Shown: piece after piece, positions 4,387-45,849 of the stretch
Layout of the letters: each line of letters starts with the position of its first letter
Numbering within the stretch: position 1 is the first letter of the stretch
From: Candidatus Liptonbacteria bacterium
Lineage (GTDB): Bacteria > Patescibacteriota > Minisyncoccia > UBA6257 > JACOXY01
Assembly: GCA_016182095.1 (NCBI GenBank)
Contig: JACOXY010000014.1
Span: forward strand, 7,234 to 71,233
DNA length: 64,000 nucleotides
Direction: 5' to 3'
Translations under genes and position numbers: made by a program
Notes under the pieces: model-generated
Seen by the model: the letters and a program-made list of their open reading frames with translations, nothing else
Databases searched by the model: none
What the model was told of the DNA's origin: nothing

Positions 4387-7300
4387 CTAAATATCTAAAT
4401 TTTTGACCCCAGCGGCGTGAGTTTGGATAAATTGTTTTCTGGGCTCAACTTCGTCGCCCATTAAAATATCAAAAAGTTTATCGGCGTCTTCGGCATCTTT
4501 TACGGTTACAACCAGCATTTTGCGGGTAGCGGGATTCATGGTGGTATCCCAAAGCTGATCCGGATTCATCTCGCCCAAACCTTTATATCGCTGAACATTA
4601 ACCGCAACTCGCCTATCCCCCGCCGCCTCTTCAGCGTCCGCTTTCTCCGCTTCTTTTAATTCATGCTTTCCGGCTCGCGCTTTGCCAAATTTCACGATGA
4701 TCGCTTCTTTTTCGTTTTCATTATATGCATACTGAACCTCTTTGCCTGATTGAATTCTAAAAAGCGGCGGCTGGGCTATGTAAAGATAGCCGCCATGAAT
4801 AACCTGCGGAAAATAACGATAGAAAAGGGTGAGTAGCAGGGTGCGAATGTGCGCCCCATCAACGTCGGCATCGGTCATAATAACAATCTTGTGGTAACGA
4901 ATTTTTTCTATATTAAAGTCCTGGGCGATGGCGGTCCCCAGAGCCATCACCAGCGCGCGGATTTCTTTATTGGCAAGCATTTTATCTATGCGCGATTTTT
5001 CTACATTCAAAATTTTCCCGCGCAAAGGAAGTATTGCCTGCGTGCGCCGATCGCGGCCCATTTTTCCGCTATTGTGCACAAACACGCCAGAAGCCAATGC
5101 GAAATTATGAGTTTTAGGAACTTCAAGGTCATAAACATCAACTTTTTCATTAAGCCAAAGGATTTCTTTAATTTTGTGGTTATGACGCTCTACTGCTTCA
5201 ACTAAATTTCTTGCGTCGCTTCCAAAAAATCTTTTAACAATAGTTTCGGCGCGTAGCAAGTTTTTGTCATTAGTTGCTTTTCTTAGATTCTCATACTCAC
5301 TAAAGTCAATTTCGCCTTTAGTTTCGTAGATACCGCGCAAAGCTTGCAGGGCTTTCTGCTTATAGGTTTCGTTATAAGCAAGTTTTCTCCTTAAACGAAA
5401 TTCGGGCGTCCATTGATCTTTGGTTTTGCCGCTGCGCCATTTTTTAAGCTTCTCATCATTCCATTGTATTTTAGCGAATTCGGAGTAAGCAAGACGTTTT
5501 TCTGGATGGTTTTCAAAATAAGCTCGCGTGCGATTCGCTTGATCGCGCCGATTTTTTTCTTCTGACCAATATTCTTTTTGCGCTCTGCTTAAAATGCTCG
5601 CGCTCTGTGCCCGATAGGCCGCATTATTGTGATAAAAATCCAAAAATTTATCAGTCATAAATTGCTTATAATCTTTGTCTTGCCACTGTTTTTGGGCACG
5701 CTCACTTAGCATCTTTCTCATTTGTGGAGTAGACATGCTGGCTCTAATTTTATTCCTGTATTCAGGTGTCTGCCTTATTAGACGAAGTTTTTCTAAAACT
5801 TGAGGGGATCGCAAAAAAATATCCGCCATTTTACGATGCAGGCCTAAATGATCTTCGCTTGAAAGTCGTGTAATATTTTCCGGGTTATTGTTTAGTTTAT
5901 TGAAATCTATATGGTGTCTGTGCGCGCCAATGCTTTTTTCGTAAATATTATTTTTCAGATTATAGTCGTCAGATAGCATGTGGGTAAAAATCCATTTCTG
6001 GTTCTGCGAATTAAAAACCATTTCGTATCCGTCAATTGTAATGCGACCGCCAATTTTGGATATTTTTTTGTATAACGGCATTAGCGAGTCTTGCGATAAA
6101 AGATCCCTAGCTTTTTTATAAGAACCATTAAGAAGCATGAATTCGTGGTCTGGCGTACAAATAATTTCCTCGCCATTATCAAGCACAACTTTAACAACTT
6201 CTGTATTCTTTTTAGTAATCCTAGGATAAACTATTTTCTGTATTGCAACTGCCCCATCTTTATCAATGGTGTAGCAATAGTTTTGTATGCCTTTTTTATC
6301 CTCATGGACCAAATCCTTAAAAGACAAATTGCGTCCATCAGCCAGTGAAACTTTTGTGTTGCCCGAAAAACATCCTCCGGCTGAATCGCCTTCCACTATA
6401 AACAATTCCGATTCGGCCGGGTCTCGCGATGAGCAATCGGCTAATTTCCCTGGCAAGGTTAAGCCCTCAAGAATTCCTTTTCGCAAAACGGTGTCTTTCG
6501 CGGCCTTAGCGGCTTTGCGAGCTTTAGCCGCAAGCAAACACTTTTCAACCATTCTCCGCGCGTCAGCCGGATGTTTCTCTAAAAATTCTTTCAAAGACTC
6601 GCTTACCACCGATTCAACAACCGTTCTCGCCTCCGGAGTCCCAAGGCGGGCTTTGGTTTGCCCTTCAAATTGCGGTTGGGAAAGTTTAACGGAAATGACC
6701 GCCACCAAACCTTCGCGCACGTCATCGCCCGTCAAATTGTCGTCTTTTTCCTTTAAGTAACCCTCGGTTCGCGCGTAAGAATTGATGGCGCGGCTCAAAG
6801 CCGATTTAAACCCGGTTGAGTGCATGCCGCCATCGGAAGTATAGATGTTGTTGGCAAAACTTAACTCTTTTGATTCAATATCCTCGGTATAAGTAAAAGC
6901 TACTTCTACTTCTATGTTATTTTCGCTTTTTTGGATGTAAAAAGGATCGTCCTGCAGAACTTTCGCGGCAGGAGTAAGGTGCCGCAAAAACGAAAGCAGT
7001 CCGCCGTCAAATTTAAGGGCGTAATATTTTGGCGCGTCAGTCCTTAAATCCCAAAAGTCAATTCTAACTCCCTTTGTTAAAAACGCCTGCTGGCGCAAGT
7101 GGTCCAAAATATACTTCCAATCAAATTTAATCTCTCCGCCACCGGTTGAAAAAATCTCCGGGTCTGGCTCAAAAATAACTTTAGTGCCAATTTGATCGCA
7201 TTTACCGACCCTCTTCACGACTTTCTTCGCCTTGCCTCGTTCATATTCTTGCTCATAAAGATAGCCATCCCGACAAACTTCGGCTTTAAGATAAATTGAG

Positions 7301-19458: not shown

Positions 19459-20328
19459 CTACACCGATTCGTAAGTATACGACAGATTGTGTTGCTGTAG
19501 GGTGTGAAGTACCGCCTCGATGGCAACCCCTTCTCGGTGTTCGTGGTCGAAACCGAATGACCAACGGATAGCCAACGAGACGAACTGGACGGCGCGGTCG
19601 AGAGCAGTGGGGAAACTTTCTCCCCTCATCATGCTCCCGAGAAAAACGCTGGTGAACGTATCTCCCGTGCCAGGGTACGATACGGGCACCTTCTCGTTCT
19701 TCACTCGCCAGAAGCGATTGCTCTGTGCGTCGAGACCGATGACCGAGGATTGTCCGGTTTCTCGGACTGGAACGCTCGTCACCACGATGTAGTTCGGACC
19801 CTTGGTCGAGAGTTCCCTCATCCATCGCTTGATCTCGTCGAGACTGACTTCCTCGCGGTAGGCTTCACCGACGAGAAGCGCTAGTTCCGTCAGGTTCGGA
19901 GTGACCACGTTTGCTTTCGCCACGAGCCTCCCCATTCCTTCGACCATCTCCGGCCCCATGGTCTGGTAGAGCTGGCCATCATCTGCGAGCACCGGATCCA
20001 CGACGACAAGCTGCCCCTCGCCACGGAAGTCGTCGATGAATCTAGAGACGATATCGACCTGTCGGGGTGAGCCGAGAAAGCCACTGTAGATCGCCTCGAA
20101 TCTTGCCCCGACTGTTTTCCAGTGTGCGACAATTCTTTCCATCTCATCAGTCAGATCCAGAAAACTGAATCCTATGAATCCGCCCGTGTGAGTGGAAAGA
20201 ATCGCAGTTGGTAAAGGACAGACCTGGATCCCCATTGAGGAAAGCGTCGGGATCACGATCGTGAGCGACGCCTTTCCGAATCCGGAGAGATCGTGGATTG
20301 CTGCCACTCTTCGAATCATGTTCTGCAT
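19459..20328 (-). CDS. pyridoxal/pyridoxine/pyridoxamine kinase (PdxK/PdxY, ribokinase superfamily), horizontally acquired
   Basis: IHDLSGFGKASL, DPVLADDG, VVTPNLTELALL and GTGDTF motifs; GC content much higher than the flanks. Confidence 0.8.
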   Translation of the reverse strand: MQNMIRRVAAIHDLSGFGKASLTIVIPTLSSMGIQVCPLPTAILSTHTGGFIGFSFLDLTDEMERIVAHWKTVGARFEAIYSGFLGSPRQVDIVSRFIDDFRGEGQLVVVDPVLADDGQLYQTMGPEMVEGMGRLVAKANVVTPNLTELALLVGEAYREEVSLDEIKRWMRELSTKGPNYIVVTSVPVRETGQSSVIGLDAQSNRFWRVKNEKVPVSYPGTGDTFTSVFLGSMMRGESFPTALDRAVQFVSLAIRWSFGFDHEHREGVAIEAVLHTLQQHNLSYTYESV

Positions 20329-25477: not shown

Positions 25478-26317
25478 ATGAAAAGAATAACACTAAAAAG
25501 AAAATTTAGCACTGCGGCAGAAAGCTCCTTGATCTTCGGGGACGCTTTAAATATTTTGCGATCTATTCCAAGTCACTCCATTGACCACTGCATAACTGAC
25601 CCCCCGTATAATATTTCCGGATACGACTATAAAAAAAAGATTGGATGGCTCCAATCAAATAGCGCCTGGGTAGAGGAGAAAAACTTTTCAAAGATTGATG
25701 CTCGGTGGGATAAGTTTTCTGATAACGATTATCTAGCTTTTACCAAAAGCTGGATCTCTGAAGTAGCCAGAGTTCTCAAGCCAAATGGGAACATTATAAT
25801 TTTTGGTTCGTATCACAATATTTATCAAATCGGCTCTATTCTACAGGATATTGATCGTAAGCTAATTAACTCTGTTGTATGGTATAAACGAAACGCATTT
25901 CCAAATGTAACACAAAGGATGCTTTGTGAGAGCACAGAGCATATAATTTGGGCTGTAAATGAAACCAAAAAAAATGCCAAGAACTGGACATTTAATTATA
26001 AAGCACTTAAAGAACTAAACGGCGGAGTACAAATGAGAAATATGTGGGATATACCATCAACTCCGGTTTCCGAAAAAAGGCACGGCAAGCATCCTTCTCA
26101 AAAACCGATTGAACTCATAAGCCGCCTTGTTCTTGGCGGGACCAACAAGAAAGATATTATCATTGATCCATTTATGGGTAGCGGCACTCTTCCGGTTGTG
26201 GCGCTAGTAAACGAAAGAGGATTTGTAGGAATTGACAACGATAAACAATACTGCAACCTGGCGCTAAAAAGAGTAGTGGATACTAGAAATCATCCAAAAC
26301 AAAACAAGGTTACTTAG
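25478..26317 (+). CDS. DNA methyltransferase (beta-class N6A/N4C)
   Basis: DHCITDPPYNI (motif IV) near the N-terminus and FMGSGTLPVVAL (motif I) near the C-terminus. Confidence 0.85.
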   Translation: MKRITLKRKFSTAAESSLIFGDALNILRSIPSHSIDHCITDPPYNISGYDYKKKIGWLQSNSAWVEEKNFSKIDARWDKFSDNDYLAFTKSWISEVARVLKPNGNIIIFGSYHNIYQIGSILQDIDRKLINSVVWYKRNAFPNVTQRMLCESTEHIIWAVNETKKNAKNWTFNYKALKELNGGVQMRNMWDIPSTPVSEKRHGKHPSQKPIELISRLVLGGTNKKDIIIDPFMGSGTLPVVALVNERGFVGIDNDKQYCNLALKRVVDTRNHPKQNKVT

Positions 26318-30090: not shown

Positions 30091-30203
30091 CAGAACCCTG
30101 ACAAAACCTAACCGCTCGGGCGGCGCGGAATTCCCCCCTTGAACCCCCCTTCCGCGCCGCCCTCGCGGGAAGTTCGTTTTTGCCCGCTTCGCGGGCACGC
30201 CGC
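30091..30203. repeat. left arm of an about 113-bp near-perfect inverted repeat bounding the R-M/ImmA island
   Basis: differs from the reverse complement of 33153-33265 at about 3 positions; GC-rich with internal palindromes. Confidence 0.85.
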
Positions 30204-30601
30204 TATTTCTTCGGGAAAAGATACTCAACCGCCACTCTCAACATCAAGTAAATCTGTGTTATTGTAGCAGTCACCAACAAACGGAAACTCCATTCTTCAA
30301 GAACAAATCCAAGCCATCCTGTTGCTTGAAGAAAAGCAAACGCGAAAATTATAAACGATTCGATACCGAGAAACCAGAGCAAGACCTTAAGCGTCAATTT
30401 CTTCAACTTAATATCTTGCTCAAGATCTACATTCTTTAGTTTTTCTCTCTTTGCTAATTCCTCTTTAATTCTAACCGGCTTTTGTTCAGAATACGAAAAT
30501 TCACTAGACGACTTTAATAGTTCCGCAACAGATTCAAAAGAAAGTGCTGGAGTTTCTTGCACTTCGGGCTCGTTTTTTGTCTTTTCTTTTTTATCAGTCA
30601 T
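30203..30601 (-). CDS. hypothetical small membrane protein (132 aa; charged N-terminus, 2 TM)
   Basis: last gene of the island operon; overlaps the end of the left inverted repeat. Confidence 0.45.
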   Translation of the reverse strand: MTDKKEKTKNEPEVQETPALSFESVAELLKSSSEFSYSEQKPVRIKEELAKREKLKNVDLEQDIKLKKLTLKVLLWFLGIESFIIFAFAFLQATGWLGFVLEEWSFRLLVTATITQIYLMLRVAVEYLFPKK

Positions 30602-30605
30602 ATCG

Positions 30606-31133
30606 TTAGTTAACGAGCCCCAACCTGCTCAACCTGATACTCATTGCCTCGACCGAAACATTGAAGACTTCTGCACAATCTTCGACATCTCTTAATTTTT
30701 CCCACGCTTTCTTAACGAGCTCCGCTGGCATAATTAAAGACGCCGCAAAGTTATTTGCTTCGGTTTCTAGTTTTGTTGAAGTGGCTTCATCTCTCCGATA
30801 AAGCATTCCCGCTCTATCGAGAACATTCTCTTCGTCAACGAAAAACTCTTTCTTTATTTCCTCTTGATGCAAAAAATAGTGTCCAAGTTCGTGAGCAATG
30901 GTAAAGTATTGTCTGGTAGGCGATTTTGTATTGTTAATGAGAATAGAAAAATTATTTTCTTCCTGGAAAAATCCAATAACCCCCGATACTTTATCGGGCA
31001 ACTTGCCTGTCCGGAATATTTTCAAATCACTTTTATCCTTCTGAATATTTTCATAGGGAAAAGGCGAAAGCCCCTCGGGGTTATACTTTTTTGAAATTTC
31101 TTCAGCGTAATTACAAATTTCCTGTATAGTCAT
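30606..31133 (-). CDS. ImmA/IrrE-family metallo-endopeptidase (COG2856, DUF955)
   Basis: YFTIAHELGHYFLH HEXXH motif and ETEANNFAASLIMP block. Confidence 0.8.
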   Translation of the reverse strand: MTIQEICNYAEEISKKYNPEGLSPFPYENIQKDKSDLKIFRTGKLPDKVSGVIGFFQEENNFSILINNTKSPTRQYFTIAHELGHYFLHQEEIKKEFFVDEENVLDRAGMLYRRDEATSTKLETEANNFAASLIMPAELVKKAWEKLRDVEDCAEVFNVSVEAMSIRLSRLGLVN

Positions 31134-31140
31134 ATTGTTG

Positions 31141-31857
31141 CTATTTGATTTTACGCTTTATTATTTCGACCAAGTTCTCTGGTTTGACTAGAAATGTCTT
31201 GAACTCATCAAAATTTTTATCAGTAATACCAATTTGAAACTCGATACCTCCTCGGTGCTGATGGCTTCTCATGGGGTGTTTTTTGACTTCTTTATCTGAA
31301 AGAACCCAATAATAAATTTTGTCTATCCACACACCAACGAAAACAAAAACATCTACAATATCCAGTTTAAGCTGTTGAAAATTCATCCAATATGGCTCAT
31401 CGGACTCAAAACTTAATGCTTTGGTTTCTAATCCGCCTCTAATTTTTGTGTTGATTGCTCGTGATGCTTTTACTTCAATCTTGATTATTTTACTTCCGTT
31501 TTCAAGATAGAGATCGTAGTCGCCGGAATACTTTTTATCAATCTGTTTTGATGGTTTCTTAAACCCTGAATCCACATCTATCAAATGCTGTTGCGCCCAA
31601 ATTTCACCAAAAACACGAGGTGAAATGTTGTAAAGATTTAGATATGGGTTCGCATTAACATACGCATCTCTTAATGCCTCATATTCTTTGAAAGTGATGA
31701 CTTTCTTATCAAGCAAATACATTAAACGATACTCGTACTCATTAAAGGGATAAATAGATTTTAGCCCGCTCAAATGGGCCAAAAGAATTTTTCGATCTTC
31801 TTGCGGTAATTCTTTGACCCACGCTTCAAGTTTTTTATCTAAATTTTTCTTATCCAT
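31141..31857 (-). CDS. putative type II restriction endonuclease (PD-(D/E)XK)
   Basis: GDYDLYLENGSKIIKIEVKAS is a D...EVK catalytic core; directly downstream of the methyltransferase. Confidence 0.55.
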   Translation of the reverse strand: MDKKNLDKKLEAWVKELPQEDRKILLAHLSGLKSIYPFNEYEYRLMYLLDKKVITFKEYEALRDAYVNANPYLNLYNISPRVFGEIWAQQHLIDVDSGFKKPSKQIDKKYSGDYDLYLENGSKIIKIEVKASRAINTKIRGGLETKALSFESDEPYWMNFQQLKLDIVDVFVFVGVWIDKIYYWVLSDKEVKKHPMRSHQHRGGIEFQIGITDKNFDEFKTFLVKPENLVEIIKRKIK

Positions 31858-31860
31858 AGA

Positions 31861-32805
31861 TTAAACTAAATCAAGAAGCGTTGGCGCGCCCAACAATTCT
31901 TCATCTTTTACTAAAATTTGGCCGTCTTTTAGAACTTTTAGCCGCCCCCACCCCATCTCGCCTGTGCGCCGGTGGTGAAGTAAACGTGCAGCCATAATCT
32001 TACAATAATTCGGATTTATATCCATTGTGTAGCATTTTCTTTTGCTCAACTCTGCCTGCAATAAGGTTGAACCGGAATGACCAAAAAAATCTACAACAAG
32101 ATCGTCAGTTTTGCTACTGGCCTCGATTATCCGTTTCGCGGATTTTAGAGGTTTCTGTGCAAAACACCCCTCAATATTCTCATGCATCAAATAAAAAACT
32201 TGTTGAATGTCATGCCAAACATTACCCGCGCGAATTGTTAGCGATTTACTCCTTTCAAAATTTTCAGTCATTTTTCCGTTCACTTTTTTGTAATATCCTT
32301 TTGTCTTTTTAGGTATATCTGTATATTCAGCCTGGACATCAAAAGCTGGCTCTCCCTTTATGTAGTAAAGCAGTTCTTGACGAATAGCCATCCAGTTTTT
32401 TTGTGTTCCATACCCTCTTTGATTTCTCATGGTAATAAAGCTCCGAATCTTCACCGGCTTATTCCTCATCATAAGAATAAAATCGGGCAATGGTTGTAAA
32501 CCACTCCTAACATCTGCCCCAAGCCAAACATAAAATGAAGAATTGTTATGAAGTATGTCTAGTGTATTATCAACCCACTTTTCGCTCCAATTCATATATT
32601 GATCTAGTGGCAAATTTCCGAATTCGTCGTTGATGTCCACATTGTAAGGCGGGTCTTGCACCGCTAACACGGCTTTTTCTTTTTCCATCAATTTTTCAAC
32701 ATCTTCTTTTTTGGAAACATCAAGACAACCAACGCGATGACCGCTAACTGGGTCTTCCCAAATCATTCCGTATTCAAAATTTGGCAAGCTGTTAGTTTTT
32801 GCCAT
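31861..32805 (-). CDS. DNA methyltransferase (beta-class N6A/N4C)
   Basis: VQDPPYNVDIN (motif IV) and FFGHSGSTLLQAE (motif I); start uncertain (the ORF extends to 32841 and overlaps the HTH gene). Confidence 0.8.
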   Translation of the reverse strand: MAKTNSLPNFEYGMIWEDPVSGHRVGCLDVSKKEDVEKLMEKEKAVLAVQDPPYNVDINDEFGNLPLDQYMNWSEKWVDNTLDILHNNSSFYVWLGADVRSGLQPLPDFILMMRNKPVKIRSFITMRNQRGYGTQKNWMAIRQELLYYIKGEPAFDVQAEYTDIPKKTKGYYKKVNGKMTENFERSKSLTIRAGNVWHDIQQVFYLMHENIEGCFAQKPLKSAKRIIEASSKTDDLVVDFFGHSGSTLLQAELSKRKCYTMDINPNYCKIMAARLLHHRRTGEMGWGRLKVLKDGQILVKDEELLGAPTLLDLV

Positions 32806-33013
32806 TGTTGAAAAATTCTTTTGGGCTAATTTCGAGTGCATGGGCTAATTTTTGGATATTTTTTAAGGCCGGATTTCTTATTCCTCGCTCAATGCCACTT
32901 ATGTAGGTTCGATGTAGTCCAGTAATTTTTGATAATTGACCTTGCGAAATTGCTCGTTTTTCTCTCAATTCTCGCAACCGCTTGCCAAATTTTGATAATT
33001 CTTGATTCTTCAT
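32792..33013 (-). CDS. XRE-family HTH transcriptional regulator (controller-protein position of the R-M operon)
   Basis: LRELREKRAISQGQLSKITGLHRTYISGIERG is a classic XRE helix-turn-helix; 73 aa. Confidence 0.8.
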   Translation of the reverse strand: MKNQELSKFGKRLRELREKRAISQGQLSKITGLHRTYISGIERGIRNPALKNIQKLAHALEISPKEFFNNGKN

Positions 33014-33632: not shown

Positions 33633-33652
33633 CTTTGCGCGGGATAAAAAAT

Positions 33653-33701
33653 GCGGTTGGGGAGAAATCCCCTCGGAGGTTCTAATCCTCCACCCTCCGC
33701 A
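33653..33701 (+). other. tRNA-like minihelix (acceptor-like stem plus T-arm GGAGG-UUCUAAU-CCUCC) lacking D and anticodon arms; likely a diverged partial duplicate of a tRNA 3' end
   Basis: GCGGUUGGGGAGAAAUCCCCUCGGAGGUUCUAAUCCUCCACCCUCCGCA has the same architecture as the tRNA-Ser 3' end, about 20 nt after the tRNA. Confidence 0.3.
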
Positions 33702-42178: not shown

Positions 42179-42982
42179 TCACAAATTAAAGTTCCCAAAT
42201 TGGGGCGACATTTGGAATTGATCTTCCTGTCTTATAATTTCTTTCGCGAGCTTGTTATAGGCATAGGCGCCTACTGAATTTGGAGCGTGTAATATAACCG
42301 GCTTTGCGAAACTTGGGGCTTCCGCCAAAGCTATGGACTTGGGTATTTCGGTATTGTAAACGTGATGCGGGAAATGCCTCCTTAGCTCCCTGCCAACCTC
42401 CCTGGATAATCGTTCGCGCTTATCATACATCGTAAGCACCGCTCCTGCAACCATGAGCGGATGGCGCAGATTGTCCCTTACTAAATTTATGGTGTGTAAA
42501 AGCTGGCCCAGTCCTTCCAGACTATAATACTCAGCCTGCACCGGGATCAAGACCTCGTCAGCCGCTATAAGACCATTTACGGTAAGCAGACTTAAAGACG
42601 GCGGCAAGTCTATTAAAATATAGTCGTAATTGTGTCTTATGCCAGTAATAAATTTTCGCAAACAGTGTTCTCTCTCCGGCATCTCAACTAATTCAATAAG
42701 AGCGCCTGCAAGATGAGGCCCAGCTGGGACATACGACAAGCCATAAAGCGCGGAGTTCTTGATTAGAGCGTGCGGTTCGCTAATGCCAAAAATACCATGA
42801 TAAATGGTGTGCTCCTCTCCCATCACATTGTGCCCTAATGCAGAACTCGCATTCCCCTGCGGATCAAAATCAATGACTAATGTGGAACGCCCGTGAGACG
42901 CAAGATAGCCGCCCAAATTTACGGCACTAGTGGTTTTTCCAACTCCCCCCTTAGCGTTACAAATTGCTATAACTCTGGCCAT
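42179..42982 (-). CDS. parA: chromosome partitioning ATPase ParA/Soj
   Basis: deviant Walker A KGGVGKTT; 267 aa. Confidence 0.9.
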   Translation of the reverse strand: MARVIAICNAKGGVGKTTSAVNLGGYLASHGRSTLVIDFDPQGNASSALGHNVMGEEHTIYHGIFGISEPHALIKNSALYGLSYVPAGPHLAGALIELVEMPEREHCLRKFITGIRHNYDYILIDLPPSLSLLTVNGLIAADEVLIPVQAEYYSLEGLGQLLHTINLVRDNLRHPLMVAGAVLTMYDKRERLSREVGRELRRHFPHHVYNTEIPKSIALAEAPSFAKPVILHAPNSVGAYAYNKLAKEIIRQEDQFQMSPQFGNFNL

Positions 42983-43270
42983 CCCTCACTCTTCAAGCAT
43001 TGATTCTCTCAACCGACGCTTGAGAGAGTAGAAACCTTTAGCAAAACGCTTAAGTTGCTTCTCGCGATTAAGCGCATCTGTTTTAGACCTATAACTTTCA
43101 AAATATATTAATGTCATTGGAAGCAGATGTTTAGTAGATTGAACCAGCCTTTTACTATGTTTTACTAATCTTTCTCTAAGATTTGGCGCAAAGCCTATAT
43201 AGAAACTTTTATCCTTCTTTGATTGTAATACATAAACATAAAACATAGTATATGCTTGAAGAGTGAGGGA
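42982..43270. promoter_or_regulatory. family-1 long-range inverted repeat (TCCCTCACTCTTCAAGCAT ... ATGCTTGAAGAGTGAGGGA) whose 250-bp loop contains a GIY-YIG gene; the proximal arm abuts the parA ATG
   Basis: perfect 19-bp arms at 42982-43000 and 43252-43270. Confidence 0.5.
42986..43246 (-). CDS. small GIY-YIG nuclease-superfamily protein
   Basis: MFYVYVLQSKKDKSFYIGFAPNLRERLVKH matches the GIY-YIG core; start taken at Met13 so the distal repeat arm lies in its leader. Confidence 0.7.
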   Translation of the reverse strand: MFYVYVLQSKKDKSFYIGFAPNLRERLVKHSKRLVQSTKHLLPMTLIYFESYRSKTDALNREKQLKRFAKGFYSLKRRLRESMLEE

Positions 43271-43319: not shown

Positions 43320-43405
43320 GCTTGGGTGGCGAAACGGCAACCGCGATGGACTCAAAATCCATTGATCGCAAGATCTTGAGGGTTCGATTCCCTCCCCAAG
43401 CACCA
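43320..43405 (+). tRNA. tRNA-Leu (anticodon CAA), long variable arm, CCA encoded
   Basis: GCUUGGG acceptor, anticodon loop CUCAAAA, variable hairpin, T-arm GAGGG-UUCGAUU-CCCUC, 3' CCCAAGC-A-CCA. Confidence 0.85.
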
Positions 43406-43611
43406 CAAAGGAAATTGCAAACTATTAAAGAAAAATTTTAATCATTTGATTTAAGAGTGAAAAATGGCCTGAAATAGGGCTATTTTGTTATTTTCGCACA
43501 AACCTTGACTTTTCATACTAAATATGCTAAACTATCAGCAGTCGTGGAATTGTAAATCCATGTCTCATTCGTGAGGGAATCACGATAACCAGTATCTTGA
43601 GGAGGTTAATC

Positions 43612-44007
43612 ATGCAGGAACTCGGAACGGGTGTTCTGAACTGGGACATCGACGAGCGGTGTTCCGATCGCTACGGACAGGTTTTTCTTCTTTCCTCGCC
43701 TGACAGTGAGGAACGAGTCAAGCTCGTCCAAGTGAAGGGTGGCGTGCGCGGGCGGCTTATGGCCATCGTCAAGGAGACGAGGCAGTCCCGCCACATCGGC
43801 GACCTTTTCCACGGTGTGTTTCCCAAGACCCCGAAAGTGGGCCAGAAGATCACGCTGGGCGAAGGAACGCTGTTCTTCCGAAACTACAACGCGGTCGGTG
43901 TTCAGCCGGACGACGGTCGAGACACACTGTGGCTCGACATCAACGGGCTCTACAAAGCCCATGAGCAGACCGTCACTCTCTACTTCGAGGAGCTTCCGGC
44001 CAACTGA
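43612..44007 (+). CDS. hypothetical protein (132 aa) encoded by a GC-rich foreign segment
   Basis: strong GAGGAGG Shine-Dalgarno 7 nt before the ATG at 43612 and sharp GC elevation, both atypical for this genome; lies between tRNA-Leu and its partial 3' duplicate. Confidence 0.55.
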   Translation: MQELGTGVLNWDIDERCSDRYGQVFLLSSPDSEERVKLVQVKGGVRGRLMAIVKETRQSRHIGDLFHGVFPKTPKVGQKITLGEGTLFFRNYNAVGVQPDDGRDTLWLDINGLYKAHEQTVTLYFEELPAN

Positions 44008-44308
44008 CGGGCGACCACAATGTCGCCTTGTCACAACGCGCCATGTCTTTGGACATCTGGCGCGTTTTACTTTTTAATAATTTGAAAGAACAAAGAATTT
44101 GCCGCTAAACCCCGCACCAGAATAAATTCGGTACGGGGCAGGGGAAAAACTTGCTTGTCCGCCGTAGCTCAAAGAGCGTAGGCGGAAAATTGTCATCCGC
44201 CCCGCCGTGGCGGGGCGAAATGCGTTCGAACTAATTCAAGTATTCTGCACCACATAGACTCGTCAAGGCGAAGTCGGGCGCGACAAAATCCTGTGGCCGC
44301 AAGGTCGT

Positions 44309-44333
44309 GAGGGTTCAAGTCCCTCCCCGCCCA
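44309..44333 (+). other. partial duplicate of the tRNA-Leu 3' end (T-arm GAGGG-UUCAAGU-CCCUC plus acceptor strand CCCGCCC-A); likely an attachment-site scar
   Basis: GAGGGUUCAAGUCCCUCCCCGCCCA versus the tRNA-Leu 3' end GAGGGUUCGAUUCCCUCCCCAAGCA; no matching 5' acceptor strand or anticodon arm upstream. Confidence 0.4.
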
Positions 44334-44404
44334 CAAAATATAAGTTAGAGCTACCGGTTGTTGCTCTTGTTTTATTTTAATCTTCTATTATATTTTAAAT
44401 AGCA

Positions 44405-44719
44405 TTGGGATTGGAGACATTAGTGCTCATCGCGAAAATTCTTTTCGGGCTTTTGGCACTCGCGCTTATCGTTGGTGTTCTCTGCGCCTTTAGATTGATA
44501 TCGGTCAATCAATCGCCAAGGACTCTAAAAATACTGGCGCGCGCTTACTTTCATGCGACGCTTGTGGGCATGCTACTCCATATATTTAATCCTTTAAGCG
44601 GGGATTTTGGAACTGTGACAATTGTATTTACGGGATGCTCGCTTGTGCTTTCCACATTTTTTGCTCTTAAGCATACAGTCTTGGAATACCGCGCTAACAA
44701 TAAAAAGAACGGCTCATAA
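44405..44719 (+). CDS. hypothetical small membrane protein (104 aa)
   Basis: hydrophobic ORF. Confidence 0.4.
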   Translation: MGLETLVLIAKILFGLLALALIVGVLCAFRLISVNQSPRTLKILARAYFHATLVGMLLHIFNPLSGDFGTVTIVFTGCSLVLSTFFALKHTVLEYRANNKKNGS

Positions 44720-44730
44720 GCCGTCATTTT

Positions 44731-45246
44731 TTATTTAGTTCCTAGAGAAAGAGCAGTTATGGCAGTATCTTTGAAACTGCGGCCTGTATAAATTAGCTTT
44801 TCTTTTTTAATAGTACCAAGAAAACCCGTGACGGCCGATGGGTAAGTCGGATCAGTTACTCTGCACCACTCTATTCCCCCATTGTCTTGCCACTCGGACA
44901 TAACATTGCCCAATCCATAAACATCGCCGCCTTTCCAATACATAACTTCTGGAAATTCCATGTGCTTGATGTGCCCGATAAGAAAGTAGCGCAAGAATGC
45001 CAGGTAGCGATATTGAGACAGCTTATTAAGAAGTGTTTTAGTAAACCGATTCGTAAGTATAACTCCCGTAGAGTATGCCGCGAAGATTAAAGATAGGGCT
45101 TGCAAATAAGGATTGCTAAAAAACGCGCTTGTCGGCGCAGAAATCATCCCGTAAGCACCGGTAATAAAATAAGCAATTAAGCCAAAAGTAAGAAAAACCA
45201 AAACTCCGATTTTAACATTCCCCCAAACATGGCGCGCCAAACCCAC
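44731..45246 (-). CDS. hypothetical membrane protein (171 aa)
   Basis: hydrophobic N-terminal half. Confidence 0.5.
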   Translation of the reverse strand: MGLARHVWGNVKIGVLVFLTFGLIAYFITGAYGMISAPTSAFFSNPYLQALSLIFAAYSTGVILTNRFTKTLLNKLSQYRYLAFLRYFLIGHIKHMEFPEVMYWKGGDVYGLGNVMSEWQDNGGIEWCRVTDPTYPSAVTGFLGTIKKEKLIYTGRSFKDTAITALSLGTK

Positions 45247-45282
45247 TTCACAACTCCAGAATATATAAATAAGCTACTTAAA

Positions 45283-45849
45283 TTATACCGCATTTCCCCT
45301 GCCAACGCCCTCGCCCAAAGGAATCTCTTTGGCCTTGGGTTGATTAAGCAATTTAAGCGATAGATAAGCGCTAAAAAACGCGGAGGCCACTCCTCCAGCT
45401 ATATCAAGCGGCCAATGAACACCGACAAAAATCCTGCCCAAGGCAACAAAAAATGCCGCCCCGAAAAGCCAATAGCCAACTTTTTTGTTGAATAAATAGA
45501 CCGCGAAAGCCAGGGTAAAGTAAAAAATAACATGTCCGGACGGGAAAGACCCAGAATTCTCATGAGCAATAAGCGGCTCAAAATTTAAAGCGAGAAAGGG
45601 GCGCGGGCTTGCATAAACATATCTAAAAGTAGCAAGTATTACTCCGGAGATAACAAGCGCCAAAAGGAGAAAAGTAAAAAAAGAAAGTTTTTGCTTTGTT
45701 GACTTGTTTTTAAATCCGAAAACGGCAACCGACACAAGTATCGCGTAGCCCAAGTACTTCGCAAAAAAAATGCCCATCCAATCCAGCGGCCAGTAAAGTC
45801 CGGCAAATTGGTGAATGAGATTGAAGAGATAGAGATTCATATAGTCCAC
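45283..45849 (-). CDS. PAP2-family membrane phosphatase (undecaprenyl-diphosphatase-like)
   Basis: PSGH motif (SFPSGHVIFYF) and the SRPF-like region (YASPRPFL). Confidence 0.75.
   Translation of the reverse strand: MDYMNLYLFNLIHQFAGLYWPLDWMGIFFAKYLGYAILVSVAVFGFKNKSTKQKLSFFTFLLLALVISGVILATFRYVYASPRPFLALNFEPLIAHENSGSFPSGHVIFYFTLAFAVYLFNKKVGYWLFGAAFFVALGRIFVGVHWPLDIAGGVASAFFSAYLSLKLLNQPKAKEIPLGEGVGRGNAV

Follow-up and report, generated by a model that had tools for sequence, protein, structure and literature searches.

A probable scar of repeated integration or of replacement at the tRNA-Leu(CAA) gene of a Candidatus Liptonbacteria genome

In the genome of a Candidatus Liptonbacteria bacterium, an intact tRNA-Leu(CAA) gene is followed on the same strand by a second, 5'-truncated tRNA-Leu(CAA) piece, and a compositionally foreign expression cassette lies between the two. 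The analyzed stretch (64,000 nucleotides of contig JACOXY010000014.1; GC content 43 %) is referred to here as the window. On balance, the arrangement is probably what decay has left of serial integration, or of replacement, at the anticodon-loop site of the tRNA gene. The truncated piece is the well-preserved 3' half of a different (foreign or older) tRNA-Leu(CAA) allele and not a decayed duplicate. Related genomes and other matching sequences are designated by L numbers. The features at the two ends of the arrangement are as follows.

43320-43405, plus strand: resident, intact tRNA-Leu(CAA) gene (ARAGORN; Rfam 58.1 bits)
43461-43496, plus strand: terminator-like hairpin (43461-43486) and T-run 3' of the resident gene
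44284-44334, plus strand: 5'-truncated tRNA-Leu(CAA) gene fragment, tRNA positions 34-76 (repeat search, alignments, degenerate pattern, weak Rfam match)
44347-44380, plus strand: weak hairpin AGAGC...GCTCT and T-run after the fragment (-8 kcal/mol, z = -1.65), possibly a former tRNA terminator

The resident tRNA gene and its 3'-half fragment

The resident gene was found by both ARAGORN and Rfam at the position given in the initial annotation. Its acceptor stem (GCTTGGG/CCCAAGC) is internally coherent, CCA is encoded, and the 5' flank is homologous to the 5' flanks of the tRNA-Leu(CAA) genes at the same locus in relatives (CTTCACTTTA...ATCAATGAGAAA).

When the window was searched for repeats, a same-strand direct repeat of 45 nt was observed (43353-43397 and 44284-44328; 82 % identity, 931 nt spacing). 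The copy of the T-arm and acceptor strand annotated initially at 44309-44333 (GAGGG-TTCAAGT-CCCTC followed by CCCGCCCA) is present there and belongs to a longer piece, 44284-44334, which comprises the anticodon CAA, the anticodon-stem 3' strand, a variable arm (GGCC-GCAA-GGTC), the T-arm, the acceptor strand CCCGCCC and A73. In local alignments with seven tRNA-Leu(CAA) genes, the similarity started at C34 of the anticodon (44284) in six and ended at 44329-44334, and an exact block (CAAAATCC) spans the anticodon loop. The ungapped match to the resident 3' half is 39/50, and the runner-up 50-mer in the window reaches 28. A degenerate pattern with 37 specified bases matched only the resident gene and the fragment in the window (0 expected from 100 shuffles). 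The similarity is far above chance, and it exceeds generic T-arm conservation, as the anticodon CAA, the 3' strand of the anticodon stem and an equally long variable arm with a GCAA loop are part of it.

The same pattern was applied to 185,579 species genomes and recovered six bona fide tRNA-Leu(CAA) genes, five from Saccharibacteria and one from Acidimicrobiales, two of which (L018 and L022, functional genes of other phyla) are 47/50 identical to the fragment. The identity to the tRNA-Leu(CAA) gene at the same locus in relative L027 is 43/50; the two also share the 3' flank CACAAAA, and the fragment forms 6/7 acceptor pairs with the L027 5' strand. The fragment differs from the resident gene at 11 positions, three of them in the 7-nt acceptor strand, and its remainder fits real tRNAs. 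Its acceptor strand CCCGCCC forms 5/7 pairs with the resident 5' strand GCTTGGG, its anticodon-stem strand forms 3/5 pairs with the resident 5' half, and the variable-arm stem shows compensated changes (GGCC/GGTC in the fragment, GATC/GATC in the resident gene). The fragment is an undecayed half of another allele, as shown by its identity to functional genes elsewhere, the compensated variable arm, the lower identity to its neighbor and the poor pairing. The initial annotation had described it as a diverged duplicate of the resident gene's own 3' end, a description that does not fit these identities.

The fragment was not called as a tRNA gene by ARAGORN, and the Rfam tRNA model gave 15.2 bits (threshold 29 bits). 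It lacks the 5' acceptor strand, D-arm and anticodon stem of a functional tRNA, and no matching 5' half was found in the window. A split or intron-containing tRNA with a hidden 5' half was rejected, as no GGGCGGG-TGGCGGAA-like sequence occurs in the window beyond chance. A tmRNA was rejected as well: ARAGORN and Rfam (tmRNA families at E<=10) found neither a tmRNA nor another known RNA in 44076-44340, and the fragment shows tRNA-Leu features (CAA anticodon, long variable arm).

Short-read assemblies of the species and its relatives break repeatedly in the tRNA-Leu(CAA) gene or the fragment (at the starts of L014-L016, at the end of L034 and in L033), likely because 35 nt of the fragment are identical to tRNA-Leu genes of other organisms. 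Three same-species Logan contigs all end inside the fragment and are uninformative on the presence or absence of the insert.

The locus in related genomes

ParA was used as the anchor for comparison of the locus, since the downstream 104-aa gene has relatives in the same species only. In L029 (ParA 80 % identical), and in identical order in L030-L032, S6, SSB and PAP2 are followed by 29 nt, tRNA-Leu(CAA), 51 nt, ParA and ParB. The 29 nt hold the shared terminator and no further gene. An empty site of the kind expected from the insertion proposed in the initial annotation, consisting of tRNA-Leu(CAA), 29 nt and PAP2, is therefore carried by these relatives.

In the window, the tRNA gene is flanked by additional DNA on either side, namely a 289-bp GIY-YIG unit on the ParA side and 1.88 kb (43406-45282) on the PAP2 side. 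At the same place, L027 (78 %) carries a 4.3 kb insert with four genes (an NYN domain gene and genes of 251, 390 and 122 aa) and L035 (75 %) a 3.5 kb insert with genes of 226 aa, an aspartate-semialdehyde dehydrogenase-like protein, 125 aa and 389 aa. The 390-aa gene is the sole gene common to these two inserts, and none is shared with the window. The part of the window insert next to PAP2 is occupied as follows.

44405-45246: two ORFan genes, 104 aa (plus strand) and 171 aa (minus strand), filling the variable segment up to PAP2 (45283-45849)

In tblastn searches, both ORFans were missing from L029, L027 and L035 and had same-species matches only. Their GC content at third codon positions (GC3) is host-like, and neither has a Pfam match.

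The tRNA gene itself is also variable, with one allele per relative; the acceptor 5' strands at the locus are GCTTGGG, GGGCGAG, GCCCAGG, GCCGCGG and GCCCGGG. In addition, the anticodon arm of tRNA-Leu(CAA) recurs in L027 as an exact copy of 18 nt (GCACGACTCAAAATCGTG; 5543-5560 versus 5628-5645, minus strand) located 85 nt downstream of the real arm; this copy looks like a leftover core attachment site. The empty site, the differing inserts, the anticodon-arm copy in L027 and a shared structured element (44092-44262, see below) mark the region downstream of tRNA-Leu(CAA) as a hot spot of insertion and the anticodon arm as a site of recombination in this clade. Among five relatives, this one locus thus has five tRNA alleles and four different contents, and recurrent small-scale insertion and turnover are seen in a lineage of the Candidate Phyla Radiation (CPR) whose mobile elements are barely known.

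The closest relative by ParA, L033 (87 % identity), is uninformative for the locus, its contig ending in a Nextera adapter (CTGTCTCTTATACACA). ParA is called there as a protein of 302 aa (P0079, 100-1008) with a Pfam Intein_splicing match, and its extra N-terminal part may stem from the assembly or from the adapter.

The foreign expression cassette

The segment between the resident gene and the fragment is dominated by a self-contained cassette with the following parts.

43496-44112, plus strand: horizontally spread expression cassette, from a GCACAA left end to the AAAGAATTTGCCGCYAA motif (blastn, alignments)
43505-43533, plus strand: sigma-70-type promoter TTGACT-17-TAAACT with an extended -10 TG, kept in homologous cassettes
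43540-43611, plus strand: structured and conserved 5' untranslated region (UTR) of about 70 nt, with a hairpin at about 43568-43587 and the Shine-Dalgarno (SD) sequence GAGGAGG at 43599-43605
43612-44007, plus strand: open reading frame (ORF) for a 131-aa small beta-barrel protein of an uncharacterised family (homologue searches, AlphaFold2, composition)
44035-44077, plus strand: intrinsic terminator and T-run (-19.4 kcal/mol, z = -5.0)

Nucleotide homology of the region to other CPR genomes is limited to this cassette (blastn 75-86 %; L001, L005, L008, L010, L025 and others). When the leaders of the window, L001, L005, L010 and L025 were compared, 4/13 pairs of the leader hairpin were altered on both sides, i.e. 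by compensatory changes, and the terminator is likewise kept with compensatory changes in all homologous cassettes. A second predicted leader hairpin pairs with the SD region and could sequester it, so that the 5' UTR may be a translational control element. From its signals, the 131-aa family would be strongly expressed.

The initial annotation had described a GC-rich ORF led by GAGGAGG and unlike native genes, and three measures agree on this point. The GC content of the ORF (0.58) is the highest among the 55 ORFs of the window (mean 0.436, standard deviation 0.05), its GC3 is 0.73 (host mean 0.45, standard deviation 0.055), and a 5-mer SD-like motif stands upstream of only 4/55 window ORFs. 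The cassette is compositionally foreign in this host. Its ORF has a GC3 of 0.55-0.78 across hosts whose GC3 spans 0.30-0.69, and this constancy whatever the host GC3 argues for recent horizontal spread. Another GC-rich ORF (GC 0.55; 19459-20328, minus strand; SD-like GGGAGG), encoding a phosphomethylpyrimidine kinase/PfkB-family protein, is possibly also horizontally acquired.

The exact sequence of the 131-aa protein is annotated in a Candidatus Liptonbacteria metagenome-assembled genome (MAG) under locus tag HYT12_03720. A word-indexed search recovered 76 homologues at 90 % clustering and a full hidden Markov model search 779 clusters at 50 % identity. The nearest members are 74-87 % identical with 15 invariant residues, and the window protein is a typical member of this uncharacterised CPR family. 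Its members carry only the label 'hypothetical protein' in MAGs of Liptonbacteria and Moranbacteria, and no match was found in Pfam, PHROG, NCBIfam or PADLOC. The AlphaFold2 model is a beta-barrel (predicted local distance difference test score 94) for which a fold search of the PDB found no match. One member, P0319, is fused to a Phage_ProQ_C_like domain, and INPHARED contains one distant homologue (LR756511.1, 22213-22479; 39 % identity, 63 % of the query covered) in a 595-kb uncultured huge phage. These two observations hint at a phage- or RNA-related role. A phage origin was rejected, as neither the family nor the 34-nt fragment core was found in IMG/VR viral contigs and the INPHARED match is partial. 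A plasmid search returned a tRNA-Leu gene only, and when metagenomes were scanned with the alignment of the family, no more than four loci were recovered. An abundant, horizontally spreading small protein family with a conserved structured leader and without a known fold match is the most interesting by-product of this analysis.

The homologous cassettes lie in at least eight different CPR contexts: after ftsZ (L001, L023 and L024), between glycosyltransferases (L002), after uvrC (L010), after tRNA-Pro/tRNA-Arg(TCT) (L005), after tRNA-Arg(CCG) with an extra 107-aa ORF (L008), among small ORFs and toxin-antitoxin genes (L011), and before tRNA-Lys (L025). With these unrelated contexts and the foreign composition, the ORF is no conserved gene native to this locus, an outcome that would have spoken against the insertion proposed initially; the homology search suggested at the time linked the protein to no known family. 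Four contexts adjoin tRNA genes, i.e. 4/8 compared with about 10 % of the gene junctions in the window, a background that is a rough estimate without a formal test.

In L005 (Parcubacteria), a perfect 24-nt direct repeat (GCACAAGATAACATTTGACTTTTG) flanks the cassette (1316-1351 and 1920-1943); it includes the -35 box, its first 6 nt are the last 6 of tRNA-Arg(TCT), and an 18-nt copy of the tRNA-Arg(TCT) 3' end precedes the cassette. GCACAA, with which tRNA genes typically end in these genomes, stands 5' of the -35 box in 4/6 cassettes. No terminal inverted repeats were found around the cassette in the window, L001, L010 or L025. A transposon, a miniature inverted-repeat transposable element and an integron cassette were rejected for this reason, the direct repeats being confined to L005.

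It is conceivable, and in our estimate rather improbable, that the cassette, possibly with the 44092-44262 element, is a miniature non-autonomous CPR mobile unit that inserts beside tRNA genes. It would be moved in trans by recombinases acting on tRNA anticodon loops or 3' ends and would carry the tRNA halves of former hosts as attachment sites. If true, this would account for the left end GCACAA with its tRNA origin, the copies of the tRNA-Arg 3' end in L005 and L008, the tRNA-Leu half of a foreign allele and the host-independent GC3 of the cassette.

The structured element between cassette and fragment

44092-44262, plus strand: GC-rich structured element with the motif AAAGAATTTGCCGCTAA, three strong hairpins (44110-44138, 44158-44186 and 44198-44217), then GCGTTCGAACTAATTCAAG

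Copies of this element were observed in L027 (3470-3570 and 5482-5507, minus strand), L010 (1050-1230) and L025 (3490-3600). In the case of L027, one copy lies between two unrelated genes and the other, a partial one, near tRNA-Leu; the copies in L010 and L025 follow the cassette. Common to the copies are the AAAGAATTTGCCGCYAA motif, a hairpin of copy-specific sequence, GAAAAACTTGC, a CCGCC...GGCGG hairpin and GTTCGRACTAATTCAA, and L027 is identical to the window at 25/26 positions of 44218-44243. Rfam gave no match for the element. Matches of its 16-nt core to 21 viral contigs were rejected as chance, since all lie inside coding sequence and show no extended similarity. A part of the element, CCGTAGCTCAA...AGAGCGTA, resembles a tRNA 5' region by eye, a resemblance supported by no tool. 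The element might be an attachment-site arm, a small RNA or a degenerate tRNA.

A tRNA-Ser fragment and other mobile features of the window

33648-33700, plus strand: 5'-truncated tRNA-Ser-like fragment, from anticodon-loop A36 to the 3' end, about 15 nt after an intact tRNA-Ser(CGA) gene

The tRNA-Ser 3'-like piece reported in the initial annotation proved to be real. Its 3' end, with the T-arm at 33675-33691, matches that of tRNA-Ser(TGA) at 24/28 positions (none of 500 shuffles was as good). Ungapped, it matches tRNA-Ser(CGA) at 33/53 positions, the third-best 53-mer of the window after the two real tRNA-Ser genes. The architecture is the same (GAAA-looped variable arm, T-arm and G73), with different stems and an unusual TTCTAAT T-loop. 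With the T-run behind it, the piece may now function as a terminator for the tRNA cluster.

Two N6/N4 DNA methylase genes and an ImmA/IrrE (M78) peptidase gene (30203-32841 and 25478-26317) lie beside the tRNA-Ala/Arg/Ser cluster and tRNA-Ser(TGA). Such content is typical of mobile and defence islands and fits a tRNA-rich stretch that collects insertions.

On the ParA side of tRNA-Leu(CAA), a 98-aa GIY-YIG gene (Pfam E = 9e-13) has the arms of a perfect 19-nt inverted repeat at its two sides (TCCCTCACTCTTCAAGCAT / ATGCTTGAAGAGTGAGGGA). This unit (42982-43270) fills precisely the space that separates the start codon of ParA from the conserved 5' flank of the tRNA gene, and L029 is without it (aaagtgaagtc-ATG). 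One repeat end provides both the A of the ParA ATG and a GAGGG just upstream. The unit looks like a compact mobile unit.

Origin of the insert

In the reading that we favor, 43406-45282 would be the variable, horizontally acquired content of a hot spot directly downstream of tRNA-Leu(CAA). Two histories would produce it. There may have been at least two entries at the anticodon-loop attachment site, so that the internal junction of a tandem array retained the tRNA 3' half of the earlier element, while the recombinase genes and the last fragment were later deleted. Alternatively, an incoming segment with its own complete tRNA-Leu(CAA) gene and the cassette may have replaced the 5' part of the older allele. 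In either history, the recombinase gene and most of the cargo would then have been deleted, and the survivor on the tRNA side would be the self-sufficient cassette with promoter, structured leader, strong SD, 131-aa beta-barrel ORF and terminator. A multi-step history is favored because a single conservative event requires a distal 3' end that fits the native 5' half, and this fit is absent. The fragment is cut exactly at the anticodon, the crossover position of tyrosine integrases specific for the anticodon loop. This exact boundary, its recurrence at tRNA-Ser and the anticodon-arm copy in L027 favor a site-specific enzyme, and we infer integrase involvement, as well as the number and order of the events, from such patterns.

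Several observations weigh against this history. By Pfam, no integrase, excisionase or remnant of either was found in 43406-45282 or in 25 other ORFs of the window; none of the ORFs between the tRNA gene and PAP2 (131, 104 and 171 aa) contains an integrase domain, and 43406-44283 has no room for an integrase gene. The initial annotation was right that no integrase remains there, and its proposal that one had been present and decayed found no remnant to stand on. The sequence directly 5' of the fragment (GGGCGCGA) contains no copy of the anticodon-stem 5' strand, which is expected at attR in a typical integrase core site and is present in the L027 copy. A third fragment, which a tandem array should have at its far end as the displaced 3' half of the native gene, was not found elsewhere in the window, and therefore an extra deletion must be assumed. 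The two ORFans have host-like GC3, and no attP-bearing element was found among the viral contigs scanned. Lastly, the alleles differ among all five relatives, so that turnover by ordinary recombination could explain the mismatch between fragment and resident gene; this rapid turnover and the lack of a core-type dyad 5' of the fragment favor a history without an integrase.

Such an integrase-free replacement is the main rival, which we consider unlikely while giving it real weight. DNA of a relative, comprising the 5' flank together with a complete tRNA-Leu(CAA) allele, the cassette and also the 44092-44262 element, would have entered by homologous recombination on the ParA/5'-flank side and by an illegitimate (microhomology) join inside the old tRNA gene, whose 3' half and terminator were fossilised. 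The resident gene is indeed a coherent allele with a 5' flank homologous to those of relatives, the fragment resembles the L027 allele including its 3' flank, every relative has a different allele at the locus, an integrase is absent, as is a core-type dyad 5' of the fragment, and one event would cover everything between 43320 and 44283. However, it would be accidental that the junction coincides with base 34 (a chance of about 1 in 12 for any position of the 7-nt loop), the same class of boundary recurs at tRNA-Ser and in the L027 anticodon-arm copy, and the two ORFans and the inserts of other relatives are left unexplained. One canonical integration, with the distal piece as the displaced and neutrally diverged 3' end of the resident gene and with later loss of the integrase, has the geometry, the orientation, the empty site in relatives and the foreign cassette in its favor. 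We nevertheless hold it to be improbable, since the fragment is undecayed (47/50 to functional genes, compensated variable-arm stem), forms only 5/7 acceptor and 3/5 anticodon-stem pairs, and has 3/11 of its differences in the acceptor strand.

Two further explanations fared worse. A tandem duplication or a second tRNA-Leu(CAA) gene that later lost its 5' half, without a mobile element at the junction, is very improbable: redundant copies are free to be truncated and the fragment retains a possible terminator, but the copies are different alleles (39/50), hence there was no local duplication, relatives have a single gene here, and a foreign cassette lies between the copies. Least probable of all is a functional fragment, the 3' tRNA-like domain of a noncoding RNA of about 200-240 nt (about 44137-44380) with a promoter-like TTGCCG-18-TAAATT, processed or CCA-tagged through its acceptor/T-arm minihelix. 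The unusually good preservation of the fragment agrees with this idea, as do GGGCGCG (44276-44282) and GGGCAGG (about 44137), each of which pairs 6/7 with CCCGCCC, the folding of 44076-44340 (better than shuffles, z = -2.7) and the conservation of the upstream element in relatives. Yet the mini-cloverleaf folds no better than shuffles (z = -0.99), no Rfam family matches, ARAGORN calls no tmRNA or tRNA, the upstream element in L027, L010 and L025 has no tRNA half behind it, and nothing comparable was found outside the species.

Comparison with known tRNA-associated insertions

The use of tRNA genes as landing pads of mobile DNA is textbook biology, and the scar described here is a further example of a well-known class. 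In Islander, 3760 of 3919 islands have a 3' tRNA gene (tDNA) fragment, 2083 have an attachment site centred on the anticodon and 125 are tandem arrays, the anticodon loop being one canonical crossover sublocation of tyrosine integrases (PMC4383910). Compared with the tyrosine-integrase islands of the 'A' sublocation (Islander; Williams 2002; PMC4383910), the locus is alike in several respects. An intact tDNA and a cognate fragment in the same orientation stand at the two ends (82 % over 45 nt), and the fragment starts in the anticodon loop, at C34, among the canonical sublocations (anticodon loop, T loop and T/acceptor junction). Relatives have an unoccupied site (L029-L032), and the locus is reused by different inserts. 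It differs from these islands in that there is no integrase gene inside, the insert measures only about 0.9 kb to the fragment and 1.9 kb to PAP2, a core-type dyad is missing 5' of the fragment, and the latter belongs to another allele that is unable to pair with the resident 5' part (5/7 acceptor and 3/5 anticodon-stem pairs). What the initial annotation had proposed stands in part: insertion at the tRNA gene agrees with the empty site in L029 and the foreign ORF, the crossover lies in the anticodon loop and not at the tRNA 3' end, and a single integration followed by decay is contradicted by the pairing and by the allele identity.

In E. coli, tRNA-Leu(CAA) is encoded by leuX. The island PAI II536, about 100 kb in length, carries an integrase and uses the 3' end of leuX rather than the anticodon loop. 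Its integration at leuX involves a P4-like integrase (PMC3202238). In both cases, the gene for the same isoacceptor is a recurrent and dispensable integration target, and integration restores the tRNA; the Liptonbacteria locus differs in that only a scar is left and in that the crossover is at the anticodon loop.

Fragments of tRNA genes (attR remnants) are a common finding in prokaryotic genomes, where annotation often mistakes them for tRNA genes (PMC9897764). The fragment at 44284-44334 is likewise a partial tRNA gene beside a complete copy, to be attributed to the insertion of a mobile element in the reading favored here. In the examples of that work, elements of 9-23 kb with exact flanking repeats are still in place (PMC9897764), whereas at the Liptonbacteria locus almost nothing of the element is left and the two copies are only 78-82 % identical. 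The locus shows that a tRNA 'duplicate' can be a foreign or older allele and not a decayed copy, which is relevant both to automated island callers and to tRNA annotation.

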